Part shown: positions 1 to 63,157 of the stretch, piece by piece
How the letters are laid out: each line of letters opens with the position of its first letter
How positions within the stretch are numbered: the stretch's first letter is position 1
Source of the DNA: Dictyostelium discoideum
Taxonomy: Eukaryota
Length of the DNA stretch: 64,000 bases
NCBI GenBank assembly: GCA_000004695.1
Contig: CM000153.2
Span: 320,001 to 384,000 of the forward strand
Direction of reading: 5' to 3'
Notes under the pieces: model-generated
Databases searched by the model: none
What the model saw: the letters and a program-made list of their open reading frames with translations, nothing else
What the model was told of the DNA's origin: nothing
Made by a program: the position numbers and the translations under genes

Positions 1-2601
1 TTTATTTGGTGAATAAATTGTACCATTATCAAATTGAAGTTGGAAATCTGTATAATCATAGCCATTGTATTTATCCAATAAGAAATCAGAACTAACTAAA
101 ATAGTATTATTACTGAAAGTTGAAAATTGTGCTAAACCTCCATCAATTGTTAAATTTTTAGGTAATGGTGGTTGTATAGCTAATGTTTTTGAATCTTTAG
201 TAAATGTAAAAATTTTGTATTTATTAAAAATTGTATTTGTATTAAATTGTTTTACAATTGTACCAGTTTGAGAGAATTGAGAATCTTGATTACTTTGTGG
301 TTCATTTATATTGATATATCCACCTAAACAATTACTACATGTAAACAATAGTTGGTCTTGGTCACTTGTAATTGTGAGATCTGGTACCCTTGTATATGAA
401 TAATCGTCACTATAAACATATACATATGAGAATTGATTAATAACTAAACTAAGTCTTGAACGATCGAAATAGGTTACTTGGTCACTAGAAACAGCAATTT
501 TACTATCATCTAAATAAAATTTATAATTTGATAATTTTGATACAAAGAGACCCTCCATTATTATAATACCATTTTCAATTGAATATCTATAAATAATTGG
601 ACGAACTAAATAATATAAAATGTTTTTTGTTAGTGTTAAATGTTAAATTAAATGTTTTGTATGATTGAAATTATAATTTTTGAATTTTTACAAATACTTA
701 CAGTTTAATCCATTTGTTAAAGTTTCGATATGATAATCATTATTAAATGAAAGTACATTTGTAGAATATGTATTTAATGTGAATGAAATGATATTTGGTT
801 CAATTAAAGTATAGTCTAAATCATTTCCATTTTTATCATTATATTTAATACTTGTTATTGGAAATAAAGAAAATGGAAATGAAAGATGTAATTGTACCTT
901 TTCTTGATTTTGAGTGATTGATGAAATCCACTTTACTGGTGGTTGATAGGTAAATAAATTTGAATGAACCAATTTATCTTTAATATAAATTGAAAAATTA
1001 CCATTACCATAACCACTTGGAATATTGAATTTACCTTGTGTTAATACACTATTATTCAAAGTATTATAATCCAATATACATATTGTACCATTTAAAAATT
1101 CTAATTTTCCTATAATATATGCTTGATTATCGTATATTTTTGGAATAAAATGGCCACTTATTGATACTATTGAATTACCATAAAATCCAAATATTTCATT
1201 GCCACTGATATTAACTTTTTGAAAATTAGTTGGTAACGGTAATGCACCAGATCGTCTATATGGATAAATCGGGGCTTCTAAATAAATTCCACTTAAAATG
1301 ATTCCTTTAGTGTCCAATTGGATTGGATAGTATGAATATTTTGTATAATTATTTGGCAATCCTATTGTTTTTGCACCAATACAATTTGTACAATCGATGA
1401 ACAGTAGATTAAAATCATTATCACACCATGAGTTTAATTTCATTTGCTGTTGTGGTTTTAAAATTGGAAATCTGTCAGATGAATAATCAAAGAGTGAAAT
1501 AAAAAAGTAGTTTTCAACATAATCTGTAGAGTTTACCACCAATGTTGTTGAATTGAATGATATTATATTTGATTGGCTTAATATGTGTTTACTTTCGAAA
1601 TTTAATATATATGCTGATAAAAAAATTTTAAAAAATACACCATTTACTGTAATAATATCACCATTGTTTTCACAACTATTGATTATTGGTTCTATAAAAA
1701 GTTAAAATGAACATATTAGAATTTTATAGTTGAAGATAAAAGTGGTGGTAGTATGAAATATTAATTTTTTTAAAAACATAAATTATACATACTAATTGGT
1801 AAAACTTCAATTGCTTCACCATTATTTATTGAAATTAATTTTGAAGAATTTTCATCTAGTGTAAAACGTAAAATATTTGGTTGAACTAATGAATATTTAA
1901 TTGATGTTCTTTTTGTATTTTTATATGGACATACATATTTTGTTTTAATATAAACATTTACATAACAATCATAAAAATTTACAGATGGTGCAGTAAAGTT
2001 AAATTCTTGATTTTCATCACATTGAAAATAATAATTTCTAGTGGAATATCCGCAAATATTATTATTATTACTGTTATATCTTAATTTCAATGCATAATCG
2101 TCAAAACCAAATTTACCAAATTCAAATTCTTCTGTGTTCAAATTTCCAGTTGTATAAAAACTCCCCCTATATATTAATCCAGATTGACTTCTATAGGAAG
2201 ATAGATTTGAACAAATAGAAAAACGGTGCTCATACTAATTAATTTATAAAAATAAAATTTAATAAAATGTAATGCCCAGTACATTAATAAAGCTTCATTA
2301 TACTTACTTGGCTATAATGATCTGGAAAACTGTGATCAACATTTTTTAATTTTGATAAATTCAAAGAAAAATAATTTGAATTAAAAATACATGAATTTAA
2401 AACGGATGTACCATTAAAATCATAATTATAATATAAATTATCTAAACTTGTTATATTAAATAAATATAAAGGTTGAGTTAATTCAATTTCAACATTACTT
2501 CGAGTTTGAATAATTGATTTAAAGATTGATTGACAATTTAATGTTGTAATAAAAAATAATAACAAAACATTTATTGATAATATTAAATTTGAATAATTCA
2601 T
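1..2601 (-). CDS. Secreted/GPI-type cell-surface glycoprotein with IPT/TIG-like repeats, family copy A. The C-terminal end runs off the window start. Four exons at approx 2308-2601, 1793-2190, 701-1691 and <1-605.
   Basis: ORFs 2284..2601 (signal peptide MNYSNLILSINVLLLFFITTLNCQS), 1770..2141 and 688..1542 are colinear with copies B and E. So is an unlisted minus-strand frame over 1-600 (MEGLFVSKLSNYKFYLDD...FTCSNCLGG...). GTAAGT/GTATGT donors and AG acceptors bound three AT-rich introns. There are many NxS/T sequons, and IPT-like segment starts (PIINSISKIKDGN..G.GF) resemble those of the Tgr-like gene at 50291. Confidence 0.7.
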
Positions 2602-3289
2602 TCTTTATTATATAATTTTTATTAATAAAATAAAAATTAAATGATTAGAAAAAAAAAAAAAAAAAAAAAATTGTTTTGAAAGGATTATTGAGAATTATTG
2701 GAAAAAAAAAAAATAATAAAAAATAAAATTAATAAAATTAATAAAAAAATCTTAGTAAACTAAGACTGGGGAAGTAAAAATAAAAAAAATAATTAAAATA
2801 AAAAAAAAAAAAAAACTTTTCGGCAATGAAAAAAAATTTCGCAGTTTCCTAGGATTTCAAAAAAAAAATCTTTTTAATGTTTCGTTTTTATAATCCCAAA
2901 AATAGATTTTTTCTTAAAATTACCAGTGCTGAGAACATATTTTTTTTTTTTTAATAATTAAATAAAATAAAATAAAATAAATTAGAATACTCAGTTTTCT
3001 ATATATTCCAATTTGAAATCAAATCAAATCATATCAAATGAAACCAATTTAAATTAATTTAAATCAAATAAAAATAGTGTCATACGTCAAAAAAATAAAA
3101 AAAAAAAAAAAAAATAAAAAAATAAATGCAAGATATCTTTTTTATTTATTTGTTTTTTTTTTTCATAATTAATTTTTGAAAGTTAAATTTTTAAAAATTG
3201 TTTTTTTTTTTATTTTTTTTTTTTTTATTTTTTTTTTTTTATAATTTTCACTTGGGATTTATATTTTTTTTTTTTATTTTCCACACACA

Positions 3290-3682
3290 ACATGCTTACA
3301 GATAACAGTTATATATGCATTTAAATATTCATGGACTATATCAAAAATAATAAACATGTTGTACAAAAAAACAAAAAGAGAGAATCAACTACATAAAGAT
3401 TAAATCATTAATTTAATTCAATTGGTAATTGTTTAATAGTTTTATTTTCTGTTATTAATTATAAATTATTATATATTCTAATGGTGATAAATTAATTAGT
3501 TAGCATGAATTTAGATAGACAATGTGTTAATAAAGTTCAACAACCAAAAAATAAACCATCTTCACTTGTTTATATGGAACATCCAATTCAAGAGAATGAT
3601 ATTTTTGTGGTTAGACTTTAGCATAATATATTTGATCAAGAGAGATAGTCAAAGCAATCAAAGAGGTAAACTCTATTGAATC

Positions 3683-3720
<38 letters not shown>
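3290..3720. repeat. Roughly 400-bp intergenic repeat element ending in ...caaagaggtaaactctattgaatcaata followed by (AAT)n. A second copy lies at 8750-9130.
   Basis: Near-identical blocks at the two positions (ccacacacaacatgcttacagataacagttatata... and ...attctaatggtgataaattaattagttagc...). This is part of a roughly 5.4-kb tandem duplication unit made of gene A or B plus its upstream region. Confidence 0.7.
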
Positions 3721-3761
<41 letters not shown>

Positions 3762-4700
3762 GTGATGGTAATAATAATAAAAGTAATAATAGTGGCTTCA
3801 GTGAATTAGTTCTTAAATTGAAGAAATTAAAGGTATTCTAGAATTAATGAAATCAATTACTTCGACAACAACAGAAACAACAAAAACAATTACCACTCAA
3901 GAAAGTACTGATTCTTTATGAAATCACTCAAGTACTTTTGATCATTGATGGTTTGGATCAATTGGACACAAGAAGAATCGTACTCATACTTTGGATTAGT
4001 TATCAATTACATTACTAATTAAATTGATGGTTCAAGATTAGATGGTCATCATACTCAAAGTTGTAGATGTGTGCACCAACTGAAAATCATTGTCGCACCA
4101 ATGAAAGTTAAAGATGGTCATAGTTTAATATTGGGTAAATTTGAAGAATTCCTTAACAAATTGGATGAATCTGCAATCAATAATCAAATGTCAATAATAA
4201 TAATAATATTAGAAATTTAGTATGAAATGAAAGAGAGAAAAATTCATTCAATGCACCAATTTGTTTAATTAAAAACAAAGATATCTTGGAGCATATTAAA
4301 GATTTCTGTGATATAGTTTCTCCAACTCATATCCTTTCAAATCAACCAACCAAATGTTAAATAAAGCACAAATTAAAGATAGTTGTAAACAAAACACGTG
4401 ATGGCTCAAAAATTGCCTGCTGGTAAAAATTCAATCATTCATATTTTCAAAGCATCTAATGGTTCAGAGTTGTTATAAAATTGGTTTGTCATTCGAATTG
4501 GATCTCTTGTTTCACCTTGGCAAGTCAAGTTGGGATGATACAGTGATAGTTTGGGATTTCATGGTAATACTGTTGTTACCATTGCACATATCAAGTGGGA
4601 TCAGTTCTTGGTGTCGACTACCAAGCGCTTGTCAATATCTCTGTGGTCTTGTTATTCAAGTCTGTAGTTTAAAAAATACATCAATATTAGAAAAATAATA
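3540..4700 (+). pseudogene. Decayed coding relic with a WD40-like segment (...GKSSWDDTVIVWDF...) and many in-frame stops.
   Basis: Higher GC than the surroundings and a C/A-rich strand bias. ORF 4459..4698 contains a WD-repeat-like 'SWDDTVIVWD' and 'HISSGISS' (compare GHTSSVTSV), but the flanking frames are full of stops. The segment is present upstream of copy A and absent from the equivalent place upstream of copy B. Confidence 0.35.
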
Positions 4701-4811: not shown

Positions 4812-7800
4812 TTATTGAAGCAATATTGATATTAGAATAAAAATAGTAGCAACTAGTTTGGAGAAAACTGAATGTAAACTAATATCACTGCTTAACATTT
4901 CATCGTCAGAATAAGTTTGGGTATAAACGGGCTCAAATTGGAAATTTGAATTTTGGTGGCTTCTAAGTTGTATTTCAATTGGATCATTATCAAAATATAT
5001 TTCCAATTTTTCATGTATTGAAAATTGGCAATTAATATTTTGATTTATTATTTCAGGATAACAATCGATTGTTTCCGAAAGGGTACGATTCTCTTTATAT
5101 AAACTATTTGCTTTAAAAGTACCACGTACAATTACATTAAAGAAACCATCCCCATTCATTTTAATATTTCCATCCTTAATTTTTGATATTGAATTAATTA
5201 TTGGTTTTTTTGGATAATAGAATGGGATTGGATTTATTATAAACTTTCTTCTATTTTCAAAAGTAACAAATACACTAAAATTACCAGATCCATATGCAAA
5301 TGGTGCATTTATTTGATATCTATAGTTTTGATCTGATTTTGATAAAAATTGTTTTTTTGCAGAATGAATTGTACCATTATCAAATTGAAATTGGAAATCG
5401 ATATTATCAAAACCATTGTATTTATCCATTAAGAAATCAGCACTTACTAAAATAGTATTATTACTGAAAGTTGAAAATTGGGCCAAACTTCCATCAACTA
5501 TTACATTTGAAGGTAATGGTGGTTGAATAACTATTGTTTTTGAATCTTTTGTAAATGTAAAAATATTGTATTTGTTAAATATTGTTTTTGTATTAAATTG
5601 TTTTACAATTGTACCAATTTGAGAGAATTGAGAATCTTGATCAGTTTGTGGTTCATTTATATTGATAGATCCACCTAAACAATTACTACATGTAAATAAT
5701 AATTGGTCTTGGTTACTAGTAATCGTGAGATCTGGTACCTTAGTAAATGAATAATCATCAATATAAACATATACATGTGAAGCCTTATTCATAATTAAAC
5801 TAAGTCTAGAACTATCGAAATAGGTTATTTGATCGCTGGAAATAGAATTTTTACTATCATCTAGATAAAATTTATAATTTGACAAATTTGACATAAAGAC
5901 ACCCTCCATTGTTATAACATCATTTTGAATTGAATAGTTATAAATAATTGGACGGACTAAATAGTATATATTATGTTTTTTTGTTAGTGTTAATATGTTA
6001 AATGTTTTGTATGGTTCAAAAATAATAATTTTTGAATGTTTACAAATACATACAGTTTAATTCATTTGTTAAAGTTTCGATATGATAATCATTATTAAAT
6101 GAAAGTACATTTGTAGAATTTGCATTTAATGTGAATGAAATAATATTTGGTTCAATTAAAGTATAGTCTAAATCTATTCCATTTTTATTATTATATTTAA
6201 TACTTGTTATTTGAAAGAAATAAACTGGGAATGAAAGATGTAATTGTACCTTTTCTAGATTTTGGGTGACAGATGATATCCACTTTGATGTTGTATAACT
6301 AAATGGATTTAAATGAACCAATTTATCTTTAATATAAATTGAAAAATTACCATTACCATAGCCACTTGGAATACTGAAATTACCTTCTGTAAATACTCTA
6401 TTACTCAAAGTTTTATAATCCAATATACATATTGTACCATTTGAAAATTCTAATTTTCCTATAATATATGCTTGATTATTATACATTTTTGGAATAAAAC
6501 TGCCACTTATTGAAACTGTTGAGATAACATTAAATTCGAATATTTCATTGCCACTGAAACTAACATGATTAAAATCAGTTGGTAACTGTAATGCACTTGA
6601 TCTTTTATATGGATAAATAGGGGCTTCTATATAAATTTCACTATCATCATTCAAAGTGATATAAATATCACTAACTTCAATTGGAGATGAATCTACTACT
6701 GTATAATTATATAACAATCCTTTTGTATTTGCACCAATACAATTTTTACAATAGATGAAAATTGAATTAAAAAAACCAGATTCATGATCATATCTTGAAC
6801 TTAATACCATTTGTTGTTGTGGCTTTAAAATTGGATAGCTTTCAGATTTAATTCCGAAAAGAGAAATAAAAAAGTTATTGTCAACGTAACCTGTTGAGTT
6901 TACTACCAATGTTGTTGAGTTGAATGATGTTATCATCGGTGGTTTTATTTGATAACCACCGTAATAAAATGTATAATTTGATAATACATTTTTAAAAAAT
7001 ATACCTTTTACTGTAATAACATCACCATTATTTTCACAATTATTGATTACTGGCTCTAAAAGAAGTTTTTTAAATTGTACTTATTAGTATTTTATAGGTT
7101 TTTTTGATTATAAAAGTAGTAGTGGTAGGAAATATTAATTTTTTTAAAAACATAAATTATACATACTAATTGATAAATCTATAGTTTTATTACCATTTAC
7201 TGAAATTAAATTTGAAGAATTTTCATCCAATGTGTAACGTAAAATATTTGGTTCAATTAATGAATATTCAATTGGTGTTCTTTTATTATTTTTATATGGA
7301 CATACATATTTTGTTTTAATATAAACATCTACATTACAATCATTAATGGATGCATATTTTGAGGAAGTAAAGTTAAACTCTTGTCTTTCATCACATATAA
7401 AATAATAATCTCTAGACATTAGATCGGTACCACCAAAAATATTTGGACAAGAAATGTGTGGATTGGTATATGTTAATTTTAATTTATAATTATCATTATT
7501 TATACCCAATTTAAAACTTTCTGTATTTAAGTATCCAGTTGGAAATGAAAATTTCCCATATTCTTCAGCACCAGATTGACTGTTTGTAAAAGATAGATTT
7601 GAACAAATTGAAAAAAAGTGTTTATACTAATTGGTTTAAAAAATAAAAGTTAATAAATGTAAAATGTAATATTTTATAAAGTTTCATTTTACTTACATCA
7701 GGGTTATAATAGTCTGGAAAACTATAGTCAATATTTTTAAATTTTGATAAATCAAAAGAATAATAAGTTGAATTAAAAATACATGAGTTTAAAACAGATG

Positions 7801-7990
7801 TACCATTAAAATCATAATTATAATATAAATTATCTAAACTTGTAATATTAAATAATTTTAATGGTTCGGCCAACTGAATTTCAACATTACTTCCAGTTTG
7901 ATTAATTGAAGTATAGATAAACTGACTATTTAATTTTGTAATAAAAATTAAAAAAAAAATAGTTGATAATATAAAATTTGAAAATTTCAT
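4812..7990 (-). CDS. Secreted/GPI-type cell-surface glycoprotein with IPT/TIG-like repeats, family copy B (apparently intact). Four exons at approx 7687-7990, 7167-7579, 6054-7055 and 4812-5957.
   Basis: ORFs 7622..7990 (signal peptide MKFSNFILSTIFFLIFITKLNSQ), 7144..7509, 6040..6936 and 4812..5909. GTAAGT/GTATGT donors close each exon, and acceptors (ttttacaaacag|, cttttag|, ctatttag|) open the next. The C-terminus ends in a hydrophobic tail (SVFSKLVATIFILISILLQ) typical of a GPI-attachment signal. Confidence 0.75.
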
Positions 7991-8056
7991 TTTTTATTAT
8001 GTGCTATTTAATAAAATAAAAATATATTGAAAAAAAAAAAAAAAAAACTATTTATA

Positions 8057-8098
<42 letters not shown>

Positions 8099-8697
8099 AA
8101 ATTATCTAATTCTTATTGGAGAAAAAAAAAATTGGGCAGTCTTGAATGAAAATATCTTGAACATTTTTTTTCCTGAATTTTAAAGTTTAACCGAAAAGTT
8201 TTTTTTTCTTTTTATTTTTTTAATATATTTTTTTATTTTTTTTGTTCAATTTTCTTTAAAAGATTAAATTAAAGAAATCAAAGATGATTTTTTTTTTAAA
8301 AAAAACCTAATCACAAGAAAAAGATTGTAATTAGAATTAAAGTAATTAACTTCTTGAAAGCCATTTTTTTTTCTTTTTTTTTTTCTTTTTTTTTTTTTTC
8401 AAATAAGGAGAGCCTCTCAGAAAATAAAGAAAAAAAAAAAAAGGCGACAAACCCACCTTTGTCACACAAAATTAATTTTCAACAATTTTATTCCAAAATT
8501 AAACTCAAAAAAAAAAAAAAAAAATTTTTCAATTTGGTTATATTAAGGGTGGTTGGATGTAAAAATTTCAGAATTAAAGTGGTGAAAAGTAATTTTGTGC
8601 GGCACTGCGGGTTTGTCTCCTTTTTTTTTTTTTACTTTTATTTTTTTATTTTCTATAGGACTTCCCTTTCAATTTTCCGAAGTTTGAATTGAAAAAA

Positions 8698-8748
<51 letters not shown>

Positions 8749-8749
8749 T

Positions 8750-9064
8750 TCTAACACAAAAAATGCACACAGAAACAGTTATATAAAACATGTTTTCAAA
8801 TATTTATAGACTATATCAAAAAATAAGCATTGCATGTTTTACGAAAAAAAAGAGTATCCCATAAAGATTAAATCATTAATTTAATTCAATTGGTAATTAT
8901 TAAATAATTAGTTTATTTTCTATTATTAATTAATTATATATTCTAATGGTGATAAATTAATTAGTTAGCTTAAAATATAGATGGACAAGTTGCTAATAAA
9001 GGTCAATCTTCAGGTGTTTGTATGGAATCAAAGAGGTAAGCTCTATTGAATCAATAGAATTTTA

Positions 9065-9130
<66 letters not shown>
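8750..9130. repeat. Second copy of the roughly 400-bp intergenic repeat plus the (AAT)n microsatellite at 9066-9158.
   Basis: Alignable by eye with 3290-3720. The (AAT)n run is about 30 units. Confidence 0.7.
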
Positions 9131-9163
<33 letters not shown>

Positions 9164-9419
9164 TTAATTAAATAAATAAACAAAAAGAATAAATAAATAA
9201 AAACAATAAATAAAAAAAAAGATAATAAAATAAAACTACAATCTTAATTGAAAAAAAAAAAAAAAAAAAAAAAAAATAAATAAATAAAATAAAACTAGTT
9301 TTAATAAATCTAAAACTTTGTAAATATGTTTTGAAAAAAAAAAAAATATTTTATTTTATTGTTTAACTAAATTTGGTTTAAAATTCAAATAAAGAACTAT
9401 CTACTCTAAAAGAGAAACC

Positions 9420-9770
9420 CTTTTCAAATGAACTCTTTGAATGATTTTATTCAACCATTGTTAACCAGCGGTCAATGAAGCATATTTAGCGCCAAAGGAA
9501 ACGTTATTGGTATTAAACAATAGCCTTGAGAAGGTGAAGCATCACTTGTAGTTCTACCATAATGAGCAGCATGATGAGCAGCAGGTGGACGAGTGACGCA
9601 AAAAGAACGAGTATACCCAGAACGAATAAAAGAATCAATGACAGCACAAACTAAACCACTTACTCTCGATGCAGCTTTAATGGAACGAATTGGACATGCA
9701 TATGTTGTGTTTTAATTTCGATTGTACAGTATCAGTAGAGTTGATCACAACGCTCAATATTCAGTGGGAG
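9420..9770 (-). other. GC-rich island of about 350 bp with a 77-codon stop-free frame on the minus strand (YACPIRSIKAASRVSGLVCAVIDSFIRSGYTRSFCVTRPPAAHHAAHYGRTTSDASPSQGYC...). Its origin is unknown; it may be a mobile-element or foreign fragment.
   Basis: Local GC is about 50% against roughly 20% around it. There is no counterpart in the paralogous A unit, and no ORF of 60 aa or more was reported in the track for it. Confidence 0.3.
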
Positions 9771-9910: not shown

Positions 9911-10651
9911 TTAAAATAATATATTTATTAATAAAAATGCTATTAAGAAAATATTTAAAATTAATTTTGACGATTTTGATGAATTTGGTTCATTTGATTC
10001 CTTTGGTTCATTTGAAGAATTTGGTTCATTTGATGAATTTGGTTCATTTGATTCATTTGGTTCTGGATTTGGTATTGAATTGAAGCAGGATAAATATTGA
10101 TCATTTTTAGTTTTTGAATATAAAGCATCTTTACAATCAATGGAACCATAGGATTCAGTACTTCCAATTCCAGTACAATCTTTTGATGGGTAGGTTGTAA
10201 TAGTGTAATTTTGAAAAGGATCATAATTGATTTTAATATTTGTACCACATACTGATGAACATTTACCTATTGTAACTATTTTATCATCGACACAAGGACC
10301 TTTTACAAATTTGAAAGAATAATATTTTGAAATTAATGTTGAACAAGTTATTTCCCCATCTATTACTTGATTATTATATCCATCATAGCAATTAAAATTA
10401 ACAATAAATGGATAATTTGTGTTTTCATAGTAACCTTGATTTTTGCAATCATAATCTGTAAAGAATGAAATTTGAAAATATGAATTGTACATTTTTGATA
10501 TCTTTGCATTTTTATTACAAAATATGCCACATTCATCCAAGTTTAATACACCATTTTCACAATTCTTTGCTTGTATTTTAAATACATCATATTGTGATGA
10601 CACAATTAAAAAAATATTAAATAAAAATAAGATTAAAAAAATAAATTTCAT
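9911..10651 (-). CDS. Small secreted Cys-rich, GPI-type glycoprotein with a Ser-rich (NEPNSS)n linker. It is ponticulin-like. Copy P1.
   Basis: ORF 9911..10651 is 246 aa. It has an N-terminal signal peptide (MKFIFLILFLFNIFLIVSSQ), about 16 Cys in a roughly 150-aa domain, and a C-terminal hydrophobic tail (KLILNIFLIAFLLINILF) of the kind that signals GPI attachment. Its paralogues are at 18450..19091 and 15121..15700. Confidence 0.7.
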   Translation of the reverse strand: MKFIFLILFLFNIFLIVSSQYDVFKIQAKNCENGVLNLDECGIFCNKNAKISKMYNSYFQISFFTDYDCKNQGYYENTNYPFIVNFNCYDGYNNQVIDGEITCSTLISKYYSFKFVKGPCVDDKIVTIGKCSSVCGTNIKINYDPFQNYTITTYPSKDCTGIGSTESYGSIDCKDALYSKTKNDQYLSCFNSIPNPEPNESNEPNSSNEPNSSNEPKESNEPNSSKSSKLILNIFLIAFLLINILF

Positions 10652-10788
10652 GTTTGTTGGAAAAAAAGAAAAATGACAAGAAAAAAAAAAAAAAAAAAAA
10701 AATATTATTTGTTATTTTTTAAAAAAAAAAAAAATTTATTTTTGGGACCTGTAAATTTAAGAAAAATATCCTTTTTTCCAATCTAAAA

Positions 10789-10866
10789 AACCGTTTTTTT
10801 CTTGGGTTTGCAAAAAAAAGTTTCGGCAAACAATAATTTTGAAAACCCAAGAAAAAAACGGTTTTT
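10789..10866. promoter_or_regulatory. Perfect 24-bp inverted repeat (aaaaaccgtttttttcttgggttt ... aaacccaagaaaaaaacggttttt) in the divergent intergenic region between P1 on the minus strand and IPT copy C on the plus strand.
   Basis: Read directly from the sequence. The arms are separated by about 30 bp (gcaaaaaaaagtttcggcaaacaataattttgaa). The adjacent ...ggacctgtaaatttaagaaaaatatcc... motif recurs upstream of other family copies at 2800-2940 (reverse orientation) and 15760-15860. Confidence 0.5.
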
Positions 10867-11059
10867 TTTTTGTTTGCCAAAACTTTTTTTTTTTTTTTAT
10901 ATATTTTTAATCGAATTTTAGTTTTTTAATTAATTTTTTTTATTTTTTTTTTTTTTATAAATTAATTCTCACCAATCCTTTCAAAACAAATTTTTTTTTT
11001 TTTTTTTTTATTTATTAATTTTAATTTTTATTTCATTAATAAAAAGTATATAATAAACA

Positions 11060-14000
11060 ATGAATTATTCAAATTTAATAATATCAATAAATTTTTTGTT
11101 ATTATTTTTTATTACAACATTAAATAGTGAATCAATCTTTAAATCAATTTATCAAACTGGAAGTAATTTTGAAATTAAATTGACTCAACCATTATATTTA
11201 TTTAATATTACAAGTTTAGATAATTTATATTATGATTATGATTTTAATGGTACATCAGTTTTAAATTCATGTATTTTTAATTCAAATTATTTTTCTTTGA
11301 ATTTATCAAAATTAAAAAATGTTGATCATAGTTTTCCAGATCGTGACTCTATGACAAATATTGAGCACCTTTTTTCAATTTGTTCCGAACTGTCTTCCTA
11401 TAGCAGTCAATCTGGTTTTATTAAAAGTGAAAGAAAGGAATTTGTTGCAACTGGAGATTTAAATAAAGAAAGTTTTAAATTTGGTAGACTTGGTGTTGAT
11501 AATTATGCATTGAAATTAACATATTCCAGTAATAATTTGTTTTATTGTGAAAGATATGGTGGTACCACTAGAAATTATTATTTTCAATGTGATGAAAATC
11601 AAGAATTTAACTTTACTGCACCATCTGTAAATTTTTATGATTGTAATGTAGATGTTTATATTAAAACAAAATATGTATGTCCATATAAAAATACCAAAAA
11701 AACACCAATTAAATATTCATTAGTTCAACCAAATATTTTACGTTTTACAATGGATGAAAATTCTTCAATTTTAATTTCAGTAAATAATGGTAATGCAATT
11801 GAATCTTTACCACCAATCAGTATGTATAATTTATTTTTTTAAAAAAATTAATATTATTTCCTACCACTACTTTTATCTTAAACTATAAAATTCTAAATGT
11901 TCATTTTAATTTTTTTATAGAGCCAATAATCTATAGTTGTGAAAACAATGGTGGTGATATTATTACAGTAAATGGTTTATTTTTTGAAAATTTTTTATCA
12001 AATTATACATTAAATTTCGAACCGTTTCTGATAGACATATTTGATCCATCAGTAATAATATCATTCAATTCAACAACATTGGTAGTAAACTCTACAGGTT
12101 ATGTTGATAATTACTTAATTATTTCTTTCTTTTATTATCAATCTGAAAGATTTCCAATTTTAAAACCACAACAGCAAATGGAATTAAGTTCATGGTATGA
12201 TGATGATTTTGATATGCTGTACAGAATGTACAAATTGTATTGGTGCAAAAACAATAGGATTGCCATATACTTATACAATACCTTCATACTACCCATTCTC
12301 ATTTTACACTGAAAAAATCATTTTAAGTGGAATTTATTTAGAAGCCCCAATCTATCCATATAAAAGATCAAATGCATTACCGTTACCAACTAATTTTCAA
12401 AAAGTTAATATCAGTGGTAATGAAATATTCGAATTTAATGGTAATTCAATAGTATCAATAAGTGGCCGTTTTATTCCAAAAATATACGATAATCAAGCAT
12501 ATATTATAGGAAAATTAGAATTTTTAAATGGTACAATATGTATATTGGATTATAATACTTTGAATAATAGTGTATTAACACAAGGTAAATTCAATATTCC
12601 AAGTGGTTATGGTAATGGTAATTTTTCAATTTATATTAAAGATAAATTGGTTCATTCAAATGCATTTACTTATCAACCACCATCAAAGTGGATTTCATCA
12701 ATCACTCAAAATCAAGAAAAGGTACAATTACATCTTTCATTTCCATTTTCTTTATTACAAATAACAAGTATTAAATATAATGATAAAAATGGAAAAGATT
12801 TAGACTATACTTTAATTGAACCTAATATCATTTCATTGACATTAAATACATATTCTACAAATGTACTTTCATTTAATAATGATTATCATATCGAAACTTT
12901 AACAAATGGGTTAAACTGTAAGTAAATACTATCATACAAATTATTTAATTTTACATATAACACTAACAAAAAACATTTTATATTATTTAGTTCGTCCAAT
13001 TATTTATAGCTATTTTAGTAATTCAATTGAAAATGGTACGAATATAATAATGGAGGGTCTCTTTGTATCAAAATTGTCAAATTATAAATTTTATTTAGAT
13101 GATAGTAAAATTGCTGTTTCTGGTGACCAAGTAACCTATTAAACAATTCTCATATGTATATGTTTATAGTGACGATTATTCATATACAAGGGTACCAGAT
13201 CTCACAATTACAAGCGAGCAAGACCAACTATTGTTTACATGTAGTAATTGTTTAGGTGGATATATCAATATAAATGAACCAGAAAGTAATCAAGATTCTC
13301 AATTCTCTCAAATTGGTACAATTGTAAAACAATTTAATACAAATACAATTTTAAATAAATACAATGCTTTTACATTTACCAAAGACTCAAAAACAATATT
13401 TATACAACCACCATTACCTTCAAATGTAAAAATTGATGGAGGTTTAGCTCAATTTTCAACTTTCAGTAATAATAATATTTTAGTTAGTGGTGATTTTTTA
13501 TTGGATATATTCAATCGTTTTGATTATACAAATTTCCAACTTCAATTTGATAATGGTACAATTTATTCACCAAATAAACAGATTTTATCAAAATCAGATC
13601 AAAACTATGTTTATCAATTAAATATACCATTTGCATATGGATCTGGTAATTTTAGTGTATTTTCTACTCTAGAAAATGGTAGAAAGTTTATTATAAATTC
13701 AACTCCATTCAATTATCCAAAAACACCAATAATTAATTCAATATCAAAAATTAAAGATGGAAATCTTAAAATAATTGGAGATGGTTTCTTTGATGTAGTT
13801 GTTTTTGGTTCTTTTAAAACAACATTTAAAAATATAACAACTGGTCTTTTTTCAGATACAATCGAATGTCATTCTCAAATAACTCAACATCAAAACATTA
13901 TTTGCCAATTTACAATGAATCAAAACTTTAGTTTAGTATATTCTCAAGATACTCCGATTACAATACAAATTAAAAGCTCCAAATACTCACAGCACCAATT

Positions 14001-14220
14001 TGAACCAGTTTATACCCAAACTTTTTTCAATAATTCAAATCCAAATTCTAATTCAAATTCTAATTCAAATTCAAATTCAAATTCAAATTCAAATTCAAAT
14101 TCAAATTCAAATTCAAATTCAAATTCAATTTTAATTTCAAATTCAAATTCAAATTCAAATTTAGTTTTCTCCAAATTTGTAGCAACTATTTTTATTTTAA
14201 TATCAATATTGTTTCAATAA
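11060..14220 (+). pseudogene. IPT/TIG-like glycoprotein family copy C. It is disrupted by a frameshift in exon 3 near 12200-12240 and by a deletion with a stop in exon 4 near 13140.
   Basis: ORFs 12079..12312 and 12197..12925 overlap in different frames at the homologous position, where the other copies read ...DNDFNLLFIDCTNCIGAKTIGLP.... Exon 4 has lost ...FDSSRISLIMNQ... and reads VTY*. Intron 1 is absent: ORF 11060..11842 reads straight through exon 1 into exon 2. The C-terminus carries an (AATTCA)n expansion that encodes (NS)18. Confidence 0.7.
14036..14150 (+). repeat. Hexanucleotide (AATTCA)n microsatellite inside copy C exon 4, encoding an NSNSNS... run.
   Basis: Direct reading. It is absent at the same place in copies B and E. 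Confidence 0.85.
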
Positions 14221-14569
14221 ATAAAAATAAATTAATAAAATTATCAAATAAAATATTATTTTGTATCATCTTTTATAATCGTCTTTTTAATGTTCATAAA
14301 AGGAATTCTGGAAACAAACTAAAATTTGAACAGTTTTTTTTTTTTTTTAAAATATTCTATTATTTTGGGGACTCGGTTATTTCTCCTCACTCACCTCGTT
14401 TAGGATTATAAAAAATAAATAAATTTACTCTTTACAAAACCAAATGAAATTCAAAATAAAAAAAATATGTATTTATTTTATTTTAATAAAAAATTTTTAT
14501 TATTATTCTCATATGATTTTATTGTTTAAGTTCTTTCTGAACATGCTATTTTTTTTTGTAAAGTTTTTT

Positions 14570-14752
14570 TTATTATTTTCCATTTCTTTTCTTTTCTTTT
14601 TCTTTTCTTTTTCTTTTTTTTTTTTCTTTTTCTTTTCTTTTCTTTTCCTTTCTATTACTATTACTATTACTATTACTATTACTATTACTATTACTATTAC
14701 TATTACTATTACTATTACTATTACTATTACTATTACTATTACTATTACTTCG
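14570..14752. repeat. Compound microsatellite: (CTTTT/CTTTTT)n followed by about 20 units of (ATTACT)n.
   Basis: Direct reading: attactattactattact... over 14652-14752. Confidence 0.9.
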
Positions 14753-15000
14753 TAAAATGACAAAAATAAAAAAATAAAAAAAATAAAAATAAAAAAACAA
14801 ATAAATAAAAAAGATATATTACATTTATTTTTTTTTTTTTTTTATTTTTTTTTTATTTTTTTGGATTGACACTATTTTTATTTGATTTGATTTCTTTTAA
14901 TTTAATTTATTGTTAAAACCATTCAAGTTTGGGCACTTTTCAAAATATGAAAATTATATAAAAATATTTGAAATTACATTTGCGCAAATTTGGATGGTTT

Positions 15001-15118
15001 TCACAATAATTTAATTTAATTTAATTTAATTTGGTTCGATTTGATTTAATTTGATTTGATTTGGTTTGATTTGGTTTGATTTGATTTGGTTTAATTTGAT
15101 TTGATTTGATTATTATTT
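15001..15118. repeat. Pentanucleotide (ATTTG/ATTTA)n satellite-like tract.
   Basis: Direct reading: ttaatttaatttggttcgatttgatttaatttgatttgatttggtttg... Confidence 0.85.
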
Positions 15119-15120
15119 TT

Positions 15121-15700
15121 TTAAAATAATATATTTTTAGTTTTTGAATATAAAGCATCTTTACAATCAATGGAACCATAGGATTCAGTACTTGCAATTC
15201 CAGTACAATCTTTTGATGGGTAGGTTGTAATAGTGTAATTTTGAAAAGGATCATAATTGATTTTAATATTTGTACCACATACTGATGAACATTTACCTAT
15301 TGTAACTATTTTATCATCGACACAAGGACCTTTTACAAATTTGAAAGAATAATATTTTGAAATTAATGTTGAACAAGTTATTTCCCCATCTATTACTTGA
15401 TTATTATATCCATCATAGCAATTAAAATTAACAATAAATGGATAATTTGTGTTTTCATAGTAACCTTGATTTTGGCAACTATAATCTGTAAAGAATGAAA
15501 TTTTAAAAAGTTCATCGTACACCTTTAAAATCTTTGCATTTTAATACAAAATATGCCACATTCATTCAAGTTTAATACACCATTTTCACAATTCTTTGCT
15601 TGTAATTCAAATACATCATATTGTGATGATACAACTAAAAAAATATTAAATAAAAATAAGATTAAAAAAATAAATTTCATATTTGTTGGTAAAAACATTA
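15121..15700 (-). pseudogene. Truncated, frameshifted duplicate (P2) of the ponticulin-like gene P1.
   Basis: Bases 15125-15480 are almost base-identical to 10085-10440. The N-terminal part (MKFIFLILFLFNIFLVVSSQYDVFELQAKNCENGVLNLNECGIFC...) runs into a stop. The Ser-rich linker and GPI tail are missing. Confidence 0.7.
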
Positions 15701-16079
15701 ACGTATTAAAAAATAAAAAAAAAAAAAATATTATATATTATTTTTAAAAAAATATATTCTCGGCACTGGTAAATTTAAGAAAAAATCTCTTTTTGGAATT
15801 ATAAAAACGAAACACGTTAAAAAGTTTTTTTTTTTTGAAATACCAAGAAAAATAAAAAGTTTTTTTTTTTTTTTTATTTTAATTATTTTTTTATTATTTG
15901 TTTTTCCAATTTTTCTAGAACCTTGGTTTACAAAGATTTTTTATTATTTTTTTTAATTTTTTTAATTTTTTTTTTTTTTTTTTTTTTGCAGATTCCCGAT
16001 CATCTATGATAATCCTTTCCAAAAAATTGTTTTTTTATTTTTTTTTTTTTTTTTAAATTTTAATAAATTTTATTTTAAA

Positions 16080-18328
16080 AATCAATTTGTTCCAAACTGC
16101 CTTCCTATAGCAGTCAATCTGTTATTATATATAAAAAGTCATTTTTTACAACTGGAGATTTAAATAAAGAAAAATTTGAATTTGGTAGATTTGGTGTTGA
16201 TAATTATGCAAGTCCTGGTTGTTCAACTAGAAATTATTATTTTCAATGTGATGAAAATCAAGAATTAACTTTACTGCACCATCCAACGTAAATTATTTTG
16301 ATTGTAATGTAGATGTTTATATTAAAACAAAACATGTATGTCCATATAAAAATACCAAAAAAACACCAATTAAATATTCATTAATTCAACCAAATGTTTT
16401 AGTTTTACATTGGATGAAAATTCTTCAAATTTAATTTCAGTAAATAATGGTAATGTAATTGAATCTTTACTTCAATATACCAAGTGGACATGGTAAAGGT
16501 ACTTTTTCAATTTATATTAAAGATAAATTGGTTCATTCGAATTCATTAAATTATCAACCCCATCAAAGTGGATATTATCAATCACTCAAAATCAAGAAAA
16601 GGTACAATTACATCTTTCATTTCCATTTTCTTTATTACAAATAACAAGTATTAAATATAATGATAAAAATGGAAAAGATTTAGACTATACTTTAATTGAA
16701 CCAAATATCATTTCATTCACATTAAATACATATTCTACAAATGTACTTTCATTTAATAATGATTATCATATTGAAGCTTTAACAAATGGATTAAACTGTA
16801 AGTATTTGTAAACATTCAAAAAATATAATTTTATTCATACAAAATATTTAATTTTATATTTAACACTAACAAAACATTTTATATTATTTAGTTCGCCCAA
16901 TTATTTATAGATATTCAATTGAAAATGGTGCTAAAATAACAATGGAGGGTCTCTTTGTATCAAATTTGTCAAATTATAAATGGAAAAGATTTAGACTATA
17001 CTTTAATTGAAACAAATATTATTTCATTCACATTAAATACATATTCTACAAATGTTCTTTCATTTAATGATGATTATCATATTGAAACATTAACAAATTC
17101 ATTAAACTGTATGTATATTTTAAAGATTAAAAACTAATCAAAATTTTTTAAATTCATAACTCACCAAAAAACATTTTATATTATTTAGATCGTCCAATTA
17201 TTTATAGTTATTCAATTCAAAATGGTATTATAACAATGGAGGGTCTCTTTGTATCAAAATTATCAAATTATAAATTTTATCTAGATTTTAGTAAAATTGC
17301 TGTTCCCAGCGATCAAGTAACCTATTTCGATAGTTCAAGAATCAGTTTAATTATGAATCAGGTTTCACATGTATATGTTTATAGTGATGAGAATTTATTT
17401 ACCATGGTACCAGATATCACGATTACAAGCCAGCAAGACCAATTATTGTTTACATGTAGTAATTGTTTAGGTGGATATATCAATATAAATGATCCAGAAA
17501 GTAATCAAGAATCTCAATTCTCTCAAATCGGTACAATTGTAAAACAATTTAATACAAATACAATTTTTAATAAATACAATGCTTTTACATTTACAAAAGA
17601 TTCAAAAACTATAGTTATACAACCGCCACTACCTTCAAATGTAAAAGTTGATGGAAGTTTAACTTAATTTTCAACATTCAGCAATAATACTATTTTATTT
17701 AGTGGTGATTTCTTATTGCATAAATACAATGGTTTAAATTATACTGATTTCCAATTTCAATATGATAATGGTACAATTTATTCGGCAAAAAAACAAATTT
17801 TATCAAAATCTGATCAAAACTATAAATATCAAATAAATGCACCATTTGCATATGGATCTGGTAATTTTAGTGTATTTGTTACTTTTGAAAATGGTAGAAA
17901 GGTTATAACAAATTCAATTCCATTCAATTATCCCAAAAAACCAATAATTAATTCAATATCAAAAATTATGGATCAATCGACATTATACAATAAGTGGCGA
18001 TGGTTTCTTTGATGTTATAGTAATTCCTTCTTTTAAATCAAACATTTATTCAGAAACAATCGAATGTCATCCTGAAATAATAAATCAAAATATTATTTAC
18101 CAGTTTGAAATGAAACAAGAATCCTCGGTAGATTCTCAATATCCAATTGAAATAAAAATTGAAAGCCTTGAATACTCACCTTTCCAATTTGAACCATTAT
18201 ATACCCAAACCTTTTTTTATGACCCAAATTCTGATTCAGAAATTTTAAAGAGTGATATTAGTTTACATTCAGTTTTCTCCAAATTATTTGCATCTCTTTT
18301 TGTTCTAATATCAAAATTGTTTCAATAA
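16080..18328 (+). pseudogene. IPT/TIG-like glycoprotein family copy D. It is heavily fragmented by deletions, an internal duplication and frameshifts.
   Basis: Short ORFs 16459..16644, 16955..17137, 17236..17667, 17716..18012 and 18110..18328 each match pieces of exons 2-4 of the intact copies. The block 16955-17137 repeats the exon-3 tail already present at 16640-16800. Confidence 0.7.
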
Positions 18329-18449
18329 ATAAAAATAAATTAATAAAATTATCAGATTAACTTTCAATAAAAAAAACAATAAAACAATAAATAAACAAAG
18401 ATACTAAAAAACATGTTGCTTCTTTTATTTTTTTTGTTTTTTTTTTTTT

Positions 18450-19091
18450 TTAAAACAATAAATTTATTAATAAAAATGTTAATAATATAAATTTGTGGAT
18501 TGTAATTAATTTAGAAGATATTGATCCATTTGATTCTATATTTGGAGTTGATTTTAAACAGGATAAATATTGATCGTTATTAGTTTTTGATAATAATTGA
18601 TTTTTACAATCAATTGATCCATAGAATTCAGTACTTCCAATTCCAGTACAATCATTCGAAAGGTAGGTTGTAATAATGTAATTTTGAAAAGGATCGTAAT
18701 TGATTATAATATTTTTGCCACATACTGATGAACATATACCCAAAAAAATTAATTTATCATCGACACAAGGACCCTCAACAAATTTGAAAGAATAATATTT
18801 TGAAATTAATGTTGAACAAATTATTTCCCCATATCTACCAATAGTATTAATTTCATTACTGCAATTAAATGGAATATATGGACGAGGGTCTTGATAGCAA
18901 ATAGCATCAGTATAGACTTTGATTGATTTTACGTTCTCGATAAATAAATATTCATTACAAAATTTACCACATTCTTGAAGAGTTAATGTGGTATTTTCAC
19001 AGCCCTTTGATTGTAATTTAAATACATCAAATTCTGATGATACAATTAAAAAAATATTAAATAAAAATAGGAATAATAAAATATATTTCAT
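18450..19091 (-). CDS. Small secreted Cys-rich, GPI-type glycoprotein, ponticulin-like. Copy P3.
   Basis: ORF is 213 aa with signal peptide MKYILLFLFLFNIFLIVSSE. The Cys framework is conserved with P1 (…CSTLISKYYSFKFVEGPCVDDK…CSSVCG…DCTGIGSTEFYGSIDCK…). The C-terminal hydrophobic tail is FILLTFLLINLLF. Confidence 0.7.
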   Translation of the reverse strand: MKYILLFLFLFNIFLIVSSEFDVFKLQSKGCENTTLTLQECGKFCNEYLFIENVKSIKVYTDAICYQDPRPYIPFNCSNEINTIGRYGEIICSTLISKYYSFKFVEGPCVDDKLIFLGICSSVCGKNIIINYDPFQNYIITTYLSNDCTGIGSTEFYGSIDCKNQLLSKTNNDQYLSCLKSTPNIESNGSISSKLITIHKFILLTFLLINLLF

Positions 19092-19769
19092 GTTATAAAA
19101 TAAAAGAAAAAAAAAATAAAAGAAAAAAAAAAATAAAAGAAAAAAAAAAATAAAAAAAAATAAAAATTAAATAAAAGAAAAAAAAAAAAATATATTTTCA
19201 AATAAAATCGATTACAAATTCTATTAACCCATCTTTTTTTTTTTCGAAATGAAAAAGATTTTTTTTCTTTAAAATCAAAGAATTATAGCGAATTTTTTTT
19301 TTTCGTATTTTTGCAATGTTAAAAAAAAAAAAAGAAAATGTCAAAAATCAATCACAAATTAATTTTTTTTTAATTATTTTTTTTTTATATGTTAAAAAAT
19401 AAACTGATACCATTTGACACTTTCAAAAGCCAAAAAAACGGAGGATTTTTTACCAAAGATTTTTTTTTTTTTTCCAATTATTATTTTTTTTTTAATTTTC
19501 TTAATTAAAATTTTTAGAAAACTAAGATTTTTTTTGTAAAAAGCCGATTTTTATCCCAAAAAAATTTTAGAAAACAAAGATTTTTTTATTTTTTTTCTAA
19601 TAATATAAACCAGAATAATTCATTTAAAAGTCAGAAAAGAAAAAAAAAGTTATTTAATATATTATTATTTTTTTTTTTTTGTCCATAAATATTTTTTTTT
19701 ATTTTTTTATTTTTTTTTCCTTAACAATTATTTAATTATTTTATAAATAAAAAGATTATTTAATAAAAA

Positions 19770-22700
19770 ATGAATTTTCCAAAATTTATATTATTAAATA
19801 TTTTATTATTAATTTTTGCCTCGACATTAAATAGTCAATCAATCTTTAGTTCAATTAATCAAAATGGAAGTAATGTTGAAATTAAATTAGTTCAACCATT
19901 ATATTTATTTAATATAACAAATTTAGATAATTTATATAATGATTATGATTTAAATGGTACATCTGTTTTAAATTCATGTATTTTTAATACAACATATTTT
20001 TCTTTGGATTTATCAATATTAAAAAATATTGACTATATTTTTAAAGATTCCAATAGCAAAGTAAGTAATTGAAACATAATAAAAATTTTAAACATTACAT
20101 TTTATTAACTTTTATTTTTGAAAACTAAATAGTATCAACACCTTTTTTCAATTTGTTCCCGAACTAAACTATATTCTGCTCAGTCTGTTATGCTTAATGA
20201 AAATGGGCAATCTTTTACAACTGGAAATTTGAATACAGAGAAATTTGAAATCGGTAGGTTCGGTTTAAATAATTATTCATTAAAGTTAACCTATACCAAT
20301 CCTGCATTCTCCTTATGTTCTAATAGTGGTTCAACTAGAAATTATTATTTTCAATGTGATGAAAATCTAGAATTTAACATCACATCCCCAAACTCGAAAA
20401 ATGTAAATTATTATGATTGTAATGTAGATGTTACTATCGCAACAAAATATGTATGTCCATATAAAAATATCAAAAAATCATCAATTAAATATTCATTAAT
20501 TCAACCAAATATTTTACGTTTTACATTGGATGAAAATTCTTCAAATTTAATTTCAATAAATAATGGAAAAGTATATGAAGTTTTACCAATTAGTATGTAT
20601 AATTTATATTTTTTAAAAAAAAAAATTAAAATTTCCTACCACCAATTTTATCTTCCACTACTACTACTAATAATACTACTTTTATCAACAATAAAAAATT
20701 CTAATACACTCATTTCATTAAACTTTTACATTTTATAGAGCCAATAATCCATAGTTGTGAAAATAATGGTGATATTATTACAGTAAATGGTTTATTTTTT
20801 AAAAATATATTATCAAATTATACATTTGGTTTCGATGGTCAATTAACAATGAACCGTTCGAATATAATATCATTCAATTCAACAACATTGGTATTAAACT
20901 CTACAGGTTATGTTGACAATAACTTTTTTATTTCACTCTTTGAAAATAAATCTGATAGCTATCCAATTTTAAAACCACAACAGCAAATGGTATTAAGTTC
21001 ATGGTATGATTATAGTTTTCGTAAGGAACGTCTTAACATTGATTGTACAAATTGCCTTGGTGCAAAAACAATAGGAATACAAAATATCTATACAAAATAT
21101 GCACATTCAATAAAAATACCCCCTGAAGATATCAATTTTAGTGGAATCTATTTAGAAGCCCCTATTTATCCTTTTAAAAGATCAAATTTATTGCCATTAC
21201 CAACTAATATTATAGGAGTTAATGATAATAAAATATTTCAATTTAATGGAATTTCAATAGTTTCAATAGCTGGTTATTTTATTCCAAAAATGTATGATAA
21301 TCAAGCATATATTACAGGAAAATTAGAATTTTCAAATGGTACATTATGTATATTGGATTATTATACTTTGGATAGTAATGTATTAACACAAGGTAAATTC
21401 AATATTCCAAGTGGTTATGGTAATGGTAATTTTTCAATTTATACTAAAGATAAGTTGGTTCATTCAAATTCATTTACTTATCAACCACCATCAAAGTGGA
21501 TATCATCAATCACACAAAATTTAGAAAAGGTACAATTACATCTTTCATTTCCATTTTCTTTTTTTCCAATTACAAGTATTAAATATAATGATAAAAATGG
21601 AAAAGATTTAGACTATACTTTAATTGAACCAAATATCATTTCATTCACATTAAATACATATTCTACAAATGTACTTTCATTTAATGATGATTATCATAAC
21701 GAAACTTTAACAAATGGATTAAACTGTATGTATAGATTAAAAATTATAATTTAAATTTAAAATTTTTAATTTTATAACTCACCAAAAAACATTTTATATT
21801 ATTTAGATCGTCCAATTATTTATAGTTATTCAATTCAAAATGGTATTATAACAATGGAGGGTTTCTTTATATCAAATTTATCAACTTATAAATTTTATCT
21901 TGATAATAGTAAAAATGCTGTTTCCAGCGATCAAATAACCTATTTCGATAGTTCAAGAATCAGTTTAATTATGAATCAGGCTTTATATGTATATGTTTAT
22001 TGTGATGACTATTCGTTTACAATGGTACCAGATCTCACAATTACAAGCCAGCAAGACCAATTATTGTTTACATGTAGTAATTGTTTAGGTGGATCTATCA
22101 ATATAAATGAACCCCAGAGTAATCAAGATTCTCAATTCTCACAAATCGGTACAATTGTAAAACAATTTAATACAAATACAATTGTTAATAAATACAATAT
22201 TTATACATTTACTAAAGATTCAAAAACAATAATTATTCAACCACCTTTACCTACAAATTTAATATTTGGTGCAAGTTTACCTAAATTTTCAACATTCAGT
22301 AATAATACTATAATAATTAGTTCTGATTTCTTATTGGATAAATATAATGGTTTTGATTACACAGATTTCCAACTTCAATTTGATAATGGTACAATATATC
22401 CAGTAAAAAAACAACTTTTATCAAAATCAGCTCAAAACTATAAATATCAAATAAATGCACCATTTGCATTTGGATCTGGTAATTTTTGTACATTTATTAC
22501 TTTTGAAAATAATAGAAAGTTAATAAATTCAATTCCATTCTATTATCCAGCAAGACCAATAATTAATTCAATATCAAAAATTAAGATTGGTGGTTTTAAA
22601 ATAAGTGGTGATGGTTTCTTTAATGTATCTTTAATTGCTTCTTTTAAAAAAAATTTGGTAAATACAACCACTGGTGTTATAAAAAATGTTATCCGATGTG

Positions 22701-22966
22701 ATCCTCAAACAACCCAAAGTCAAAATTTAGATTGTGAATTTATAAATACAATACATACAGATAAATTAAATGAATTTCCAATTACAATACTAATTAAAAG
22801 CCAAAGTAATTCACTGTTCAGATTTGAACCATTTTATATCCAATCTTATTTTTATTATCCAAATTCTTATTCATATTATGAAATGAACAATGATATTAGT
22901 TTACATTCGGTTTTCTCCAAATTAGTTGCAACTATTTTTATTATAATATCAATATTGCTTCAATAA
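19770..22966 (+). CDS. IPT/TIG-like glycoprotein family copy E, intact, about 966 aa. Four exons at approx 19770-20060, 20133-20592, 20739-21725 and 21807-22966.
   Basis: ORFs 19770..20072, 20190..20738, 20849..21754 and 21854..22966. Donors are gtaagt at 20061, gtatgt at 20593 and gtatgt at 21726. Acceptors are aactaaatag|, ttttatag| and ttatttag|. The exon phases (0, 1, 1) are consistent with the ORF-track frames. Confidence 0.75.
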
Positions 22967-63085: not shown

Positions 63086-63090
63086 TTCTA

Positions 63091-63094
<4 letters not shown>

Positions 63095-63150
<56 letters not shown>

Positions 63151-63157
63151 AATAATG

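Follow-up and report, generated by a model that had tools for sequence, protein, structure and literature searches.

Background

Proteins of the Tgr family carry a TgrO1-like immunoglobulin (Ig) domain, TIG repeats, a transmembrane helix and a cytoplasmic tail. The known MRH proteins are quality-control lectins of the endoplasmic reticulum (ER) and Golgi or lysosomal sorting receptors, with transmembrane segments and cytosolic sorting signals. Ponticulin is Cys-rich and has a glycosylphosphatidylinositol (GPI)-type signal, and binding and nucleation of F-actin at the membrane is a property of its family. The signal peptide of ponticulin is cleaved (PMC2290967). These are the closest described systems for a series of divergent gene pairs in Dictyostelium discoideum, each made up of a gene for a small Cys-rich protein and a gene for a large glycoprotein. 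The pairs lie in a 64,000-nucleotide (nt) stretch of chromosome 4 (contig CM000153.2, positions 320,001 to 384,000), which is called the window here and in which coordinates are given unless another locus is named. The first-pass annotation of this DNA had likened the pairs to tgrB1/tgrC1, and those two genes are indeed head-to-head, 524 bp apart and coordinately regulated (PMC12142906).

The gene pairs and their duplication

The most economical account of this locus, and probably the correct one, is a birth-and-death array, tandem and inverted, of one inherited two-gene cassette. The window is AT-rich (~21% GC), and its self-comparison finds five copies (A-E) of one large gene of ~3.2 kb, while the small gene has exactly three copies (P1, P2 and P3; tblastn with P1 and P3 as queries). 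The small genes are all on the minus strand, each divergent to a large gene on the plus strand. P1 (9911..10651), an intact open reading frame (ORF) of 246 aa, lies 408 bp from C (11060..14220), and the region between them (10652..11059) is presumably a shared promoter region. P2 (DDB_G0283235, 15121..15680) lies 400 bp from D (~16081..18328), and P3 (DDB_G0283241, 213 aa, 18450..19091) is separated by 678 bp (19092..19769) from E (DDB_G0283243, 965 aa, 19770..22966). The three pairs had been proposed in the first-pass annotation and they are real, with matching ORFs and coordinates. Divergent orientation with start codons less than 1 kb apart, the layout of gene pairs with a bidirectional promoter, is found in all of them and in a D. 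firmibasis pair (415 bp). The pyruvate kinase gene (pyk) adjoins the array on the right.

The pairs had also been thought to be duplicated as units, based on near-identical segments at 10085-10440 and 15125-15480. These are 94% identical, and the wider homology (10092-10776 vs 15124-15794) reaches 92% identity. From the small gene across part of the intergenic region to the 5' end of the large gene, the pairs are homologous and collinear, with the same order, orientation and spacing, and therefore they were copied as units. The run of three pairs goes back to one ancestral arrangement that was duplicated and does not represent three separate coincidences. The small genes group as (P1,P2),P3 (92% vs 87%), and exon 2 of the large genes groups as (C,D),E (93% vs 87% and 79%). 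A and C are inverted near-duplicates with 88-93% identity; D is nearest to C in exon 2 and roughly equidistant from C and E at its 3' end. This pattern of similarity points to recombination among the copies.

A microsatellite with a 6-bp period lies downstream of C (14649-14749, translating as ITITIT / SNSNSN). It recurs at three sites of the GCA_054859355.1 locus (L009), two of them just downstream of large-gene copies, and could either belong to the unit that was duplicated or serve as a substrate for recombination.

Conservation of the pairing

The first-pass annotation would have regarded the pairing as an accident if it were missing from related species, but it is kept in D. firmibasis and in other isolates. 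In D. firmibasis (L004), a small gene of 221 aa (8920-9585, minus strand) lies head-to-head with the only large gene detected there. The small gene is 48% identical to P1 and the large gene 46% identical to E. The D. discoideum strain AX4 and D. firmibasis are estimated to have split 50-100 million years (My) ago (PMC12745789). The pairing predates the local duplications and is ~50-100 million years old.

In the divergent isolate GCA_054859385.1, the syntenic locus (L005) has the orthologs of P1-C and P3-E as two head-to-head pairs. Both small genes there are intact ORFs and both large genes are annotated as uninterrupted (989 and 954 aa), with the 989-aa ortholog of C showing, in the annotation's model, full-length homology to E. 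A second cluster in the same assembly (L006) has two further head-to-head pairs, and GCA_054859355.1 has two, with one of the large members a remnant. The second AX4 cluster (L002), ~100 kb away, contains DDB_G0283101 head-to-head with a large neighbour and a retroelement integrase gene between them. This retroelement gene (L002 6772-9269) has Integrase_H2C2 / rve matches, and its insertion has widened the gap between the two genes to 3.9 kb.

Array content varies between isolates, and in AX4 the large genes outnumber the small ones. In GCA_054859235.1, labelled 'cf. discoideum' (L010), a truncated pair (7486-9261) lies beside the pyk-proximal large gene. Its small member is reduced to the 3' half (residues 113-246) and directly adjoins the remaining 3' part of its large member (residues 504-891). 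Apparently one deletion took both 5' halves and the intergenic region, so that both members were lost in one event. Two relatives of the small genes are unpaired: the D. firmibasis paralog P0024 lies beside an Arf-type GTPase gene, and the D. purpureum relative P0027 lies beside PTR2 transporter and helicase genes.

Intact and degenerate copies

P3-E is the sole intact pair in the window, since D, P2 and C are broken. P3 matches XP_639187.1 / Q54RF8 exactly. The unique gene model of E, with introns at 20061-20132, 20593-20738 and 21726-21806, is exactly XP_639188.1 / Q54RF7. DDB_G0283243 has been placed at position 341,224 of chromosome 4 (PMC12954983). In the literature searched, these genes are named in one paper only, where a point mutation in DDB_G0283243 is listed together with three other changes in a suppressor strain and was not followed up functionally.

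The first-pass annotation had one unit decaying jointly. This describes P2-D, in which both members are wrecks, but decay is wider and C is frameshifted as well. C is a pseudogene in AX4. In DNA alignments, 2 nt are missing near 12222 and 29 nt near 13139, and the reading frame changes at both sites. No stop-free model of C exists that uses the homologous introns of its paralogs. The lesions are identical in a second, independently sequenced assembly, GCA_054883475.1. Over 20.6 kb, this assembly and the window differ only at a single substitution and in the lengths of homopolymers, none of them in coding sequence, and sequencing error is thereby excluded as the source of the lesions. The assembly is probably that of lab strain AX2-214 (PMC12745789). 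At the site of intron 1 in A, B and E (~70 nt), C (11060-11842) has no intron and 7 extra codons instead, so this intron was either lost or shrunk to an in-frame 21 nt.

A deposited 953-aa model of C in GCA_054883475.1 was rejected, as it requires introns that are absent from every paralog in order to skip the two frameshifts. The annotation of that assembly (L001 14870-18030, equivalent to window 11060-14220) also gives P1 as a spliced gene of 290 aa and P2 as 203 aa. These models appear to bridge frameshifts and stops with invented introns, and database entries for the cluster should therefore be treated with care. The deposited models for C, and probably for P2, conceal pseudogenes.

D is a heavily decayed pseudogene that lacks residues 1-102 and 249-470. 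Part of it is duplicated internally, its frame changes at least six times and two of its high-scoring segment pairs contain internal stops, and at its former start (~16081) the ATG is now ATC. P2 is a pseudogene remnant with a frameshift near codon 48-50 and no C-terminus. It is found by tblastn as two pieces in different frames, its homology stops at P1 residue 183, and its deposited model (170 aa) lacks the conserved Cys residues and the tail. A tally of intact and broken members across loci gave a one-sided Fisher p of ~0.06 for co-decay; the copies are non-independent and the tally was not used as evidence.

The two large genes on the minus strand are intact. A (DDB_G0283227, 970 aa, 1..2601) has its 3' end cut by the start of the window, and its exons 1-2 are 100% identical to P0010. 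B (DDB_G0283229, 957 aa, 4812..7990) has a unique stop-free model with three GT-AG introns (7627-7696, 7056-7193 and 5957-6053), which departs from the deposited one in just two choices of splice site or start. Neither has a small partner, and tblastn with P1 and P3 found no small-gene homology upstream of A (2600-4700) or upstream of B. The region upstream of A aligns with the P2-D intergenic region, nearly to the expected start of the small gene.

The large proteins

E has a predicted signal peptide, MRH domain, IPT/TIG-like Ig modules and C-terminal hydrophobic tail, and 21 N-glycosylation sequons; the large proteins have 21-30 sequons. Hydropathy gives them exactly two hydrophobic segments, the N-terminal signal and the extreme C-terminus. 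Both families had been viewed as surface proteins in the first-pass annotation, and this holds up in that both have the look of secreted GPI-type glycoproteins, with hydrophobic segments at the two termini only.

Pfam returned no family for full-length E at E<=10, and none for the exon ORFs at E<=0.1. The AlphaFold model of E is all-beta, with a mean predicted local distance difference test score (pLDDT) of 55 and values of 65-82 over residues 80-500. Because the overall model is only moderate, the fold assignments rest on its better half. Foldseek matches the model to strings of Ig-like domains and its N-terminal domain to the cation-dependent mannose-6-phosphate receptor, with a probability of 1.0 and template modelling (TM) scores of 0.53-0.59. 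E is thus predicted to contain an MRH / P-type lectin fold with a conserved Cys framework, and modules of the IPT/TIG (E-set) Ig-like fold are likewise predicted from the model. UniProt names Q54RF7 'MRH domain-containing protein'. At the sequence level the MRH signal is one marginal CI-MPR match (motif 'R..yF.CDE...C.V.f..KTK.VCP'). MRH domains bind mannose or Man-6-P through conserved Gln, Arg, Glu and Tyr residues, and the candidates here are Q114, invariant in the family, and R166, nearly invariant.

The large genes had been labelled IPT in the first-pass annotation. The Ig-like fold of the structure model fits this label, but the large family has no Pfam match to TIG (PF01833), and none to Ig_TgrO1 (PF24612). 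The same scan detects TIG in the true tgr genes of the window (1.9e-08 and 1.4e-11), and therefore the large proteins are not Tgr proteins. Alignment of the last module to a Tgr TIG domain of the window (hhalign) gave E=0.014 but a probability of 3%, and a profile of the three module starts ('P-I-I-x-S...G..F') found nothing among Tgr proteins or in PDB. Members of the large family were detected in the D. discoideum and D. citrinum clades only, apart from one copy in D. firmibasis, and a third homology search, run with the alignment of the family, added none.

The tgr genes of the window are themselves head-to-head, ~1.1 kb apart. The minus-strand ORF (50291-52747) has Ig_TgrO1 (7.9e-29) and TIG (1.9e-08) matches, and the plus-strand ORF (53874-54845) has the other TIG match (1.4e-11). 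The plus-strand gene is split into at least two ORFs, and so has an intron or is a pseudogene.

The small proteins

In P1 a predicted signal peptide is followed by two 6-Cys modules, a stalk rich in N/S/P and a hydrophobic tail at the C-terminus. The small proteins have 12 conserved Cys residues in a 2 x 6 pattern, with the module spacing C-x9/10-C-x3-C-x23-C-x13/18-C-x14/15-C. The stalk is polar and carries N-glycosylation sequons. Hydrophobic segments are confined to residues 1-21 and the last 17-19 residues, with the tail reaching the final residue, a build that suggests GPI-type proteins. In UniProt P3 is labelled 'Transmembrane protein'. Structure prediction for P1, from an alignment of four sequences, gave a mean pLDDT of 36 and an unusable model.

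The small genes had been called ponticulin-like. They have no Pfam match, and a word-indexed search with the family found seven relatives, all hypothetical proteins of D. discoideum or D. citrinum. An exhaustive hmmsearch of 1.84 billion representatives with the P profile gave seven matches at E<=0.001, all from Dictyostelium. Among them are two proteins of D. firmibasis, two with a single module and a distant one from D. purpureum (E = 4e-5). Since the matches are named 'hypothetical', 'expressed' or 'transmembrane protein' and none ponticulin, the ponticulin label is unsupported at the sensitivity of HMMER. As judged from their sequences, the small proteins form a family restricted to this lineage, in which two 6-Cys modules are combined with ends of the GPI type.

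The two unrelated families share 'SKL(I/V)' at the start of the C-terminal hydrophobic tail, and this is conserved in the D. firmibasis pair. The tail begins with 'SSKLI...' in the small proteins (P1, window 9911-10000, and P3) and with 'LHSV(F/I)SKL(V/I)...' in the large proteins (E, window 22880-22966). It may be a common GPI-attachment or sorting signal.

Evolutionary rate

Synonymous divergence (dS) and the ratio of nonsynonymous to synonymous divergence (dN/dS) were obtained from AX4 and one divergent isolate, GCA_054859385.1. P1 has a dS of 0.12 and a dN/dS of 0.35, P3 has 0.12 and 0.71, and the four exons of E have 0.11-0.18 and 0.33-0.58. Among the neighbouring genes, pyk has a dS of 0.104 and a dN/dS of 0, and eIF2B-epsilon has 0.084 and 0.055. 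Both families evolve fast (dN/dS 0.33-0.71 vs 0-0.06 in the neighbours), and their amino-acid identity between the two strains is 83-91%. For comparison, 80-90% identity and a dN/dS below 1 are reported for tgrB1 (PMC12745789). In the Tgr system both partners vary extremely between wild isolates. There is no excess of synonymous divergence over the neighbours (0.11-0.18 vs 0.08-0.10), and hence no sign of old balanced alleles.

Intergenic regions

The short intergenic region shared by the two genes is probably a bidirectional promoter, by analogy with the region between tgrB1 and tgrC1. If so, both genes are probably co-expressed and would act in the same surface or secretory-pathway process. 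DDB_G0283101 is the only one of these genes in the differential-expression lists of Rosengarten 2015.

The P3-E region aligns poorly with the other intergenic regions. The P1-C region has a 31-nt inverted repeat (10785-10815 / 10837-10867) that is 97% complementary with a 21-nt spacer. The repeat lies mid-region and is the main GC-containing element there. Part of it (AAGTTTCGGCAAA) also occurs in the orthologous region of GCA_054859385.1, but not in P3-E. The repeat may have a regulatory role as a palindrome, or it may be a relic.

Elsewhere in the window, a long hexanucleotide repeat (62990-63410) gives CLFV-repeat ORFs in all three minus-strand frames; this is simple-sequence DNA and not a gene.

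Origin and function of the pairing

The proposed cassette would consist of two genes that diverge from an AT-rich intergenic region of 0.4-0.7 kb. Both products would be secreted and have a GPI-type C-terminus. The small one would have two 6-Cys modules, and the large one would be a glycoprotein that combines an MRH (P-type lectin) domain with IPT/TIG-like Ig modules. This gene pair would already have been in place in the last ancestor shared by D. discoideum and D. firmibasis. Segmental duplication in the D. discoideum clade would then have copied both genes (P1-C, P2-D, P3-E) or the large gene alone (A, B), and the duplicated copies would later have recombined and decayed. With a cassette that was ancestral and then amplified, the repeated head-to-head pairing is inherited by descent. 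Some observations do not sit well with this account. The nine intergenic regions have no GC-containing 9-mer common to all of them. In D. citrinum, an intact small gene of 225 aa is tail-to-tail with a large gene, 2.5 kb apart. A, B and the pyk-proximal gene of GCA_054859235.1 are intact large genes without a small neighbour, and the structure model of E is moderate.

The two genes could be functionally unrelated neighbours that happened to be adjacent at the time of the first duplication and have stayed so because the segment is small and rearrangements are rare. By a simple orientation expectation about one in four adjacent gene pairs is divergent by chance, and every pair here traces to one ancestral adjacency. 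The small family is older and occurs unpaired (P0027, P0024), the large gene was duplicated alone, D. citrinum lost the head-to-head layout, and the intergenic regions lack a common motif. However, adjacency and orientation have outlasted 50-100 My, with the proteins now at 46-48% identity and the flanking synteny changed, which argues mildly for a functional link. The products also share an unusual topology and the same tail-start motif, and we consider the chance explanation rather doubtful.

A closer link was suggested in the first-pass annotation, that of co-regulated partners such as a ligand and a receptor. Each small protein would then bind specifically to the large protein of the adjacent gene, and the pairs would co-diversify for cell-cell recognition like TgrC1/TgrB1. 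The layout and the length of the intergenic region resemble those of tgrB1/tgrC1, the pairing has been retained since the D. firmibasis split, and both products are surface-type glycoproteins. Identity and dN/dS (0.3-0.7) are near those of tgrB1, genes are gained, fragmented and lost as at the tgrBC locus, and a predicted lectin domain on the large protein is matched by N-glycosylation sequons on the small one. But only one of the three pairs in the window is intact, and P1 is intact beside a dead C. Intact large genes occur without small neighbours and intact small genes without large ones, and the AX4 genes of the two families are unequal in number. Synonymous divergence gives no hint of old balanced alleles, and the large proteins have no cytoplasmic tail for signalling. 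The small and large proteins are probably not obligate one-to-one cognate partners; such pairs are disfavoured because either gene often survives without the other alongside. This weakens the ligand-receptor idea, which we consider improbable. The inherited cassette, amplified and then decaying, remains the preferred account.

More speculatively, the D. discoideum clade would have in this cassette a second module for surface recognition, one that is independent of Tgr. The MRH domain of the large GPI-type protein would read the N-glycans of the small 6-Cys partner, in cis or on a neighbouring cell, and the array would produce lineage-specific repertoires by duplication, recombination and decay, as at tgrBC. 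We regard this as highly improbable. Should the two genes indeed work together, a model organism for self/non-self recognition would have a second locus of surface gene pairs with rapid turnover. In that case an MRH lectin domain would also gain a role at the cell surface, its other known settings being ER quality control and lysosomal sorting. For now the value of the analysis is mostly corrective, with two uncharacterised clade-restricted families defined along with their true domain content. The array also shows cleanly how a cassette of two genes evolves by birth and death.

Comparison with known systems

The cassette appears to be undescribed, and is in kind an ordinary lineage-specific tandem family. 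In its build the small protein is like ponticulin, as both are small, Cys-rich and secreted with a C-terminal hydrophobic signal of GPI type, but this build is generic and not diagnostic. The small proteins have no detectable sequence relationship to ponticulin, and none of the seven proteins from the profile search bears that name. They are tandems of two 6-Cys modules. They are also about 1.5 times longer than ponticulin.

The large protein is like the MRH proteins CI-MPR, CD-MPR, OS-9/Yos9, glucosidase II beta and GNPTG in that the motif of E aligns with a CI-MPR domain. Unlike in those proteins, one predicted MRH domain heads a string of Ig-like modules here, in a GPI-type protein of a young multi-copy family.

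The closest parallel for the pair as a whole is tgrB1/tgrC1 on chromosome 3. At both loci the two genes are head-to-head across ~0.5 kb of intergenic DNA and encode surface glycoproteins, the large member having Ig folds of the IPT/TIG type (predicted ones in this case). Local gain, fragmentation and loss of genes and a raised but sub-unity dN/dS between clade isolates are likewise common to both. The pair described here has partners from two unrelated families, not two Tgr paralogs, and no Pfam TIG or Ig_TgrO1 match. Both of its proteins end in a hydrophobic tail with no cytoplasmic domain, and its large protein carries a predicted MRH lectin domain, which further distinguishes it from tgrB1/tgrC1.

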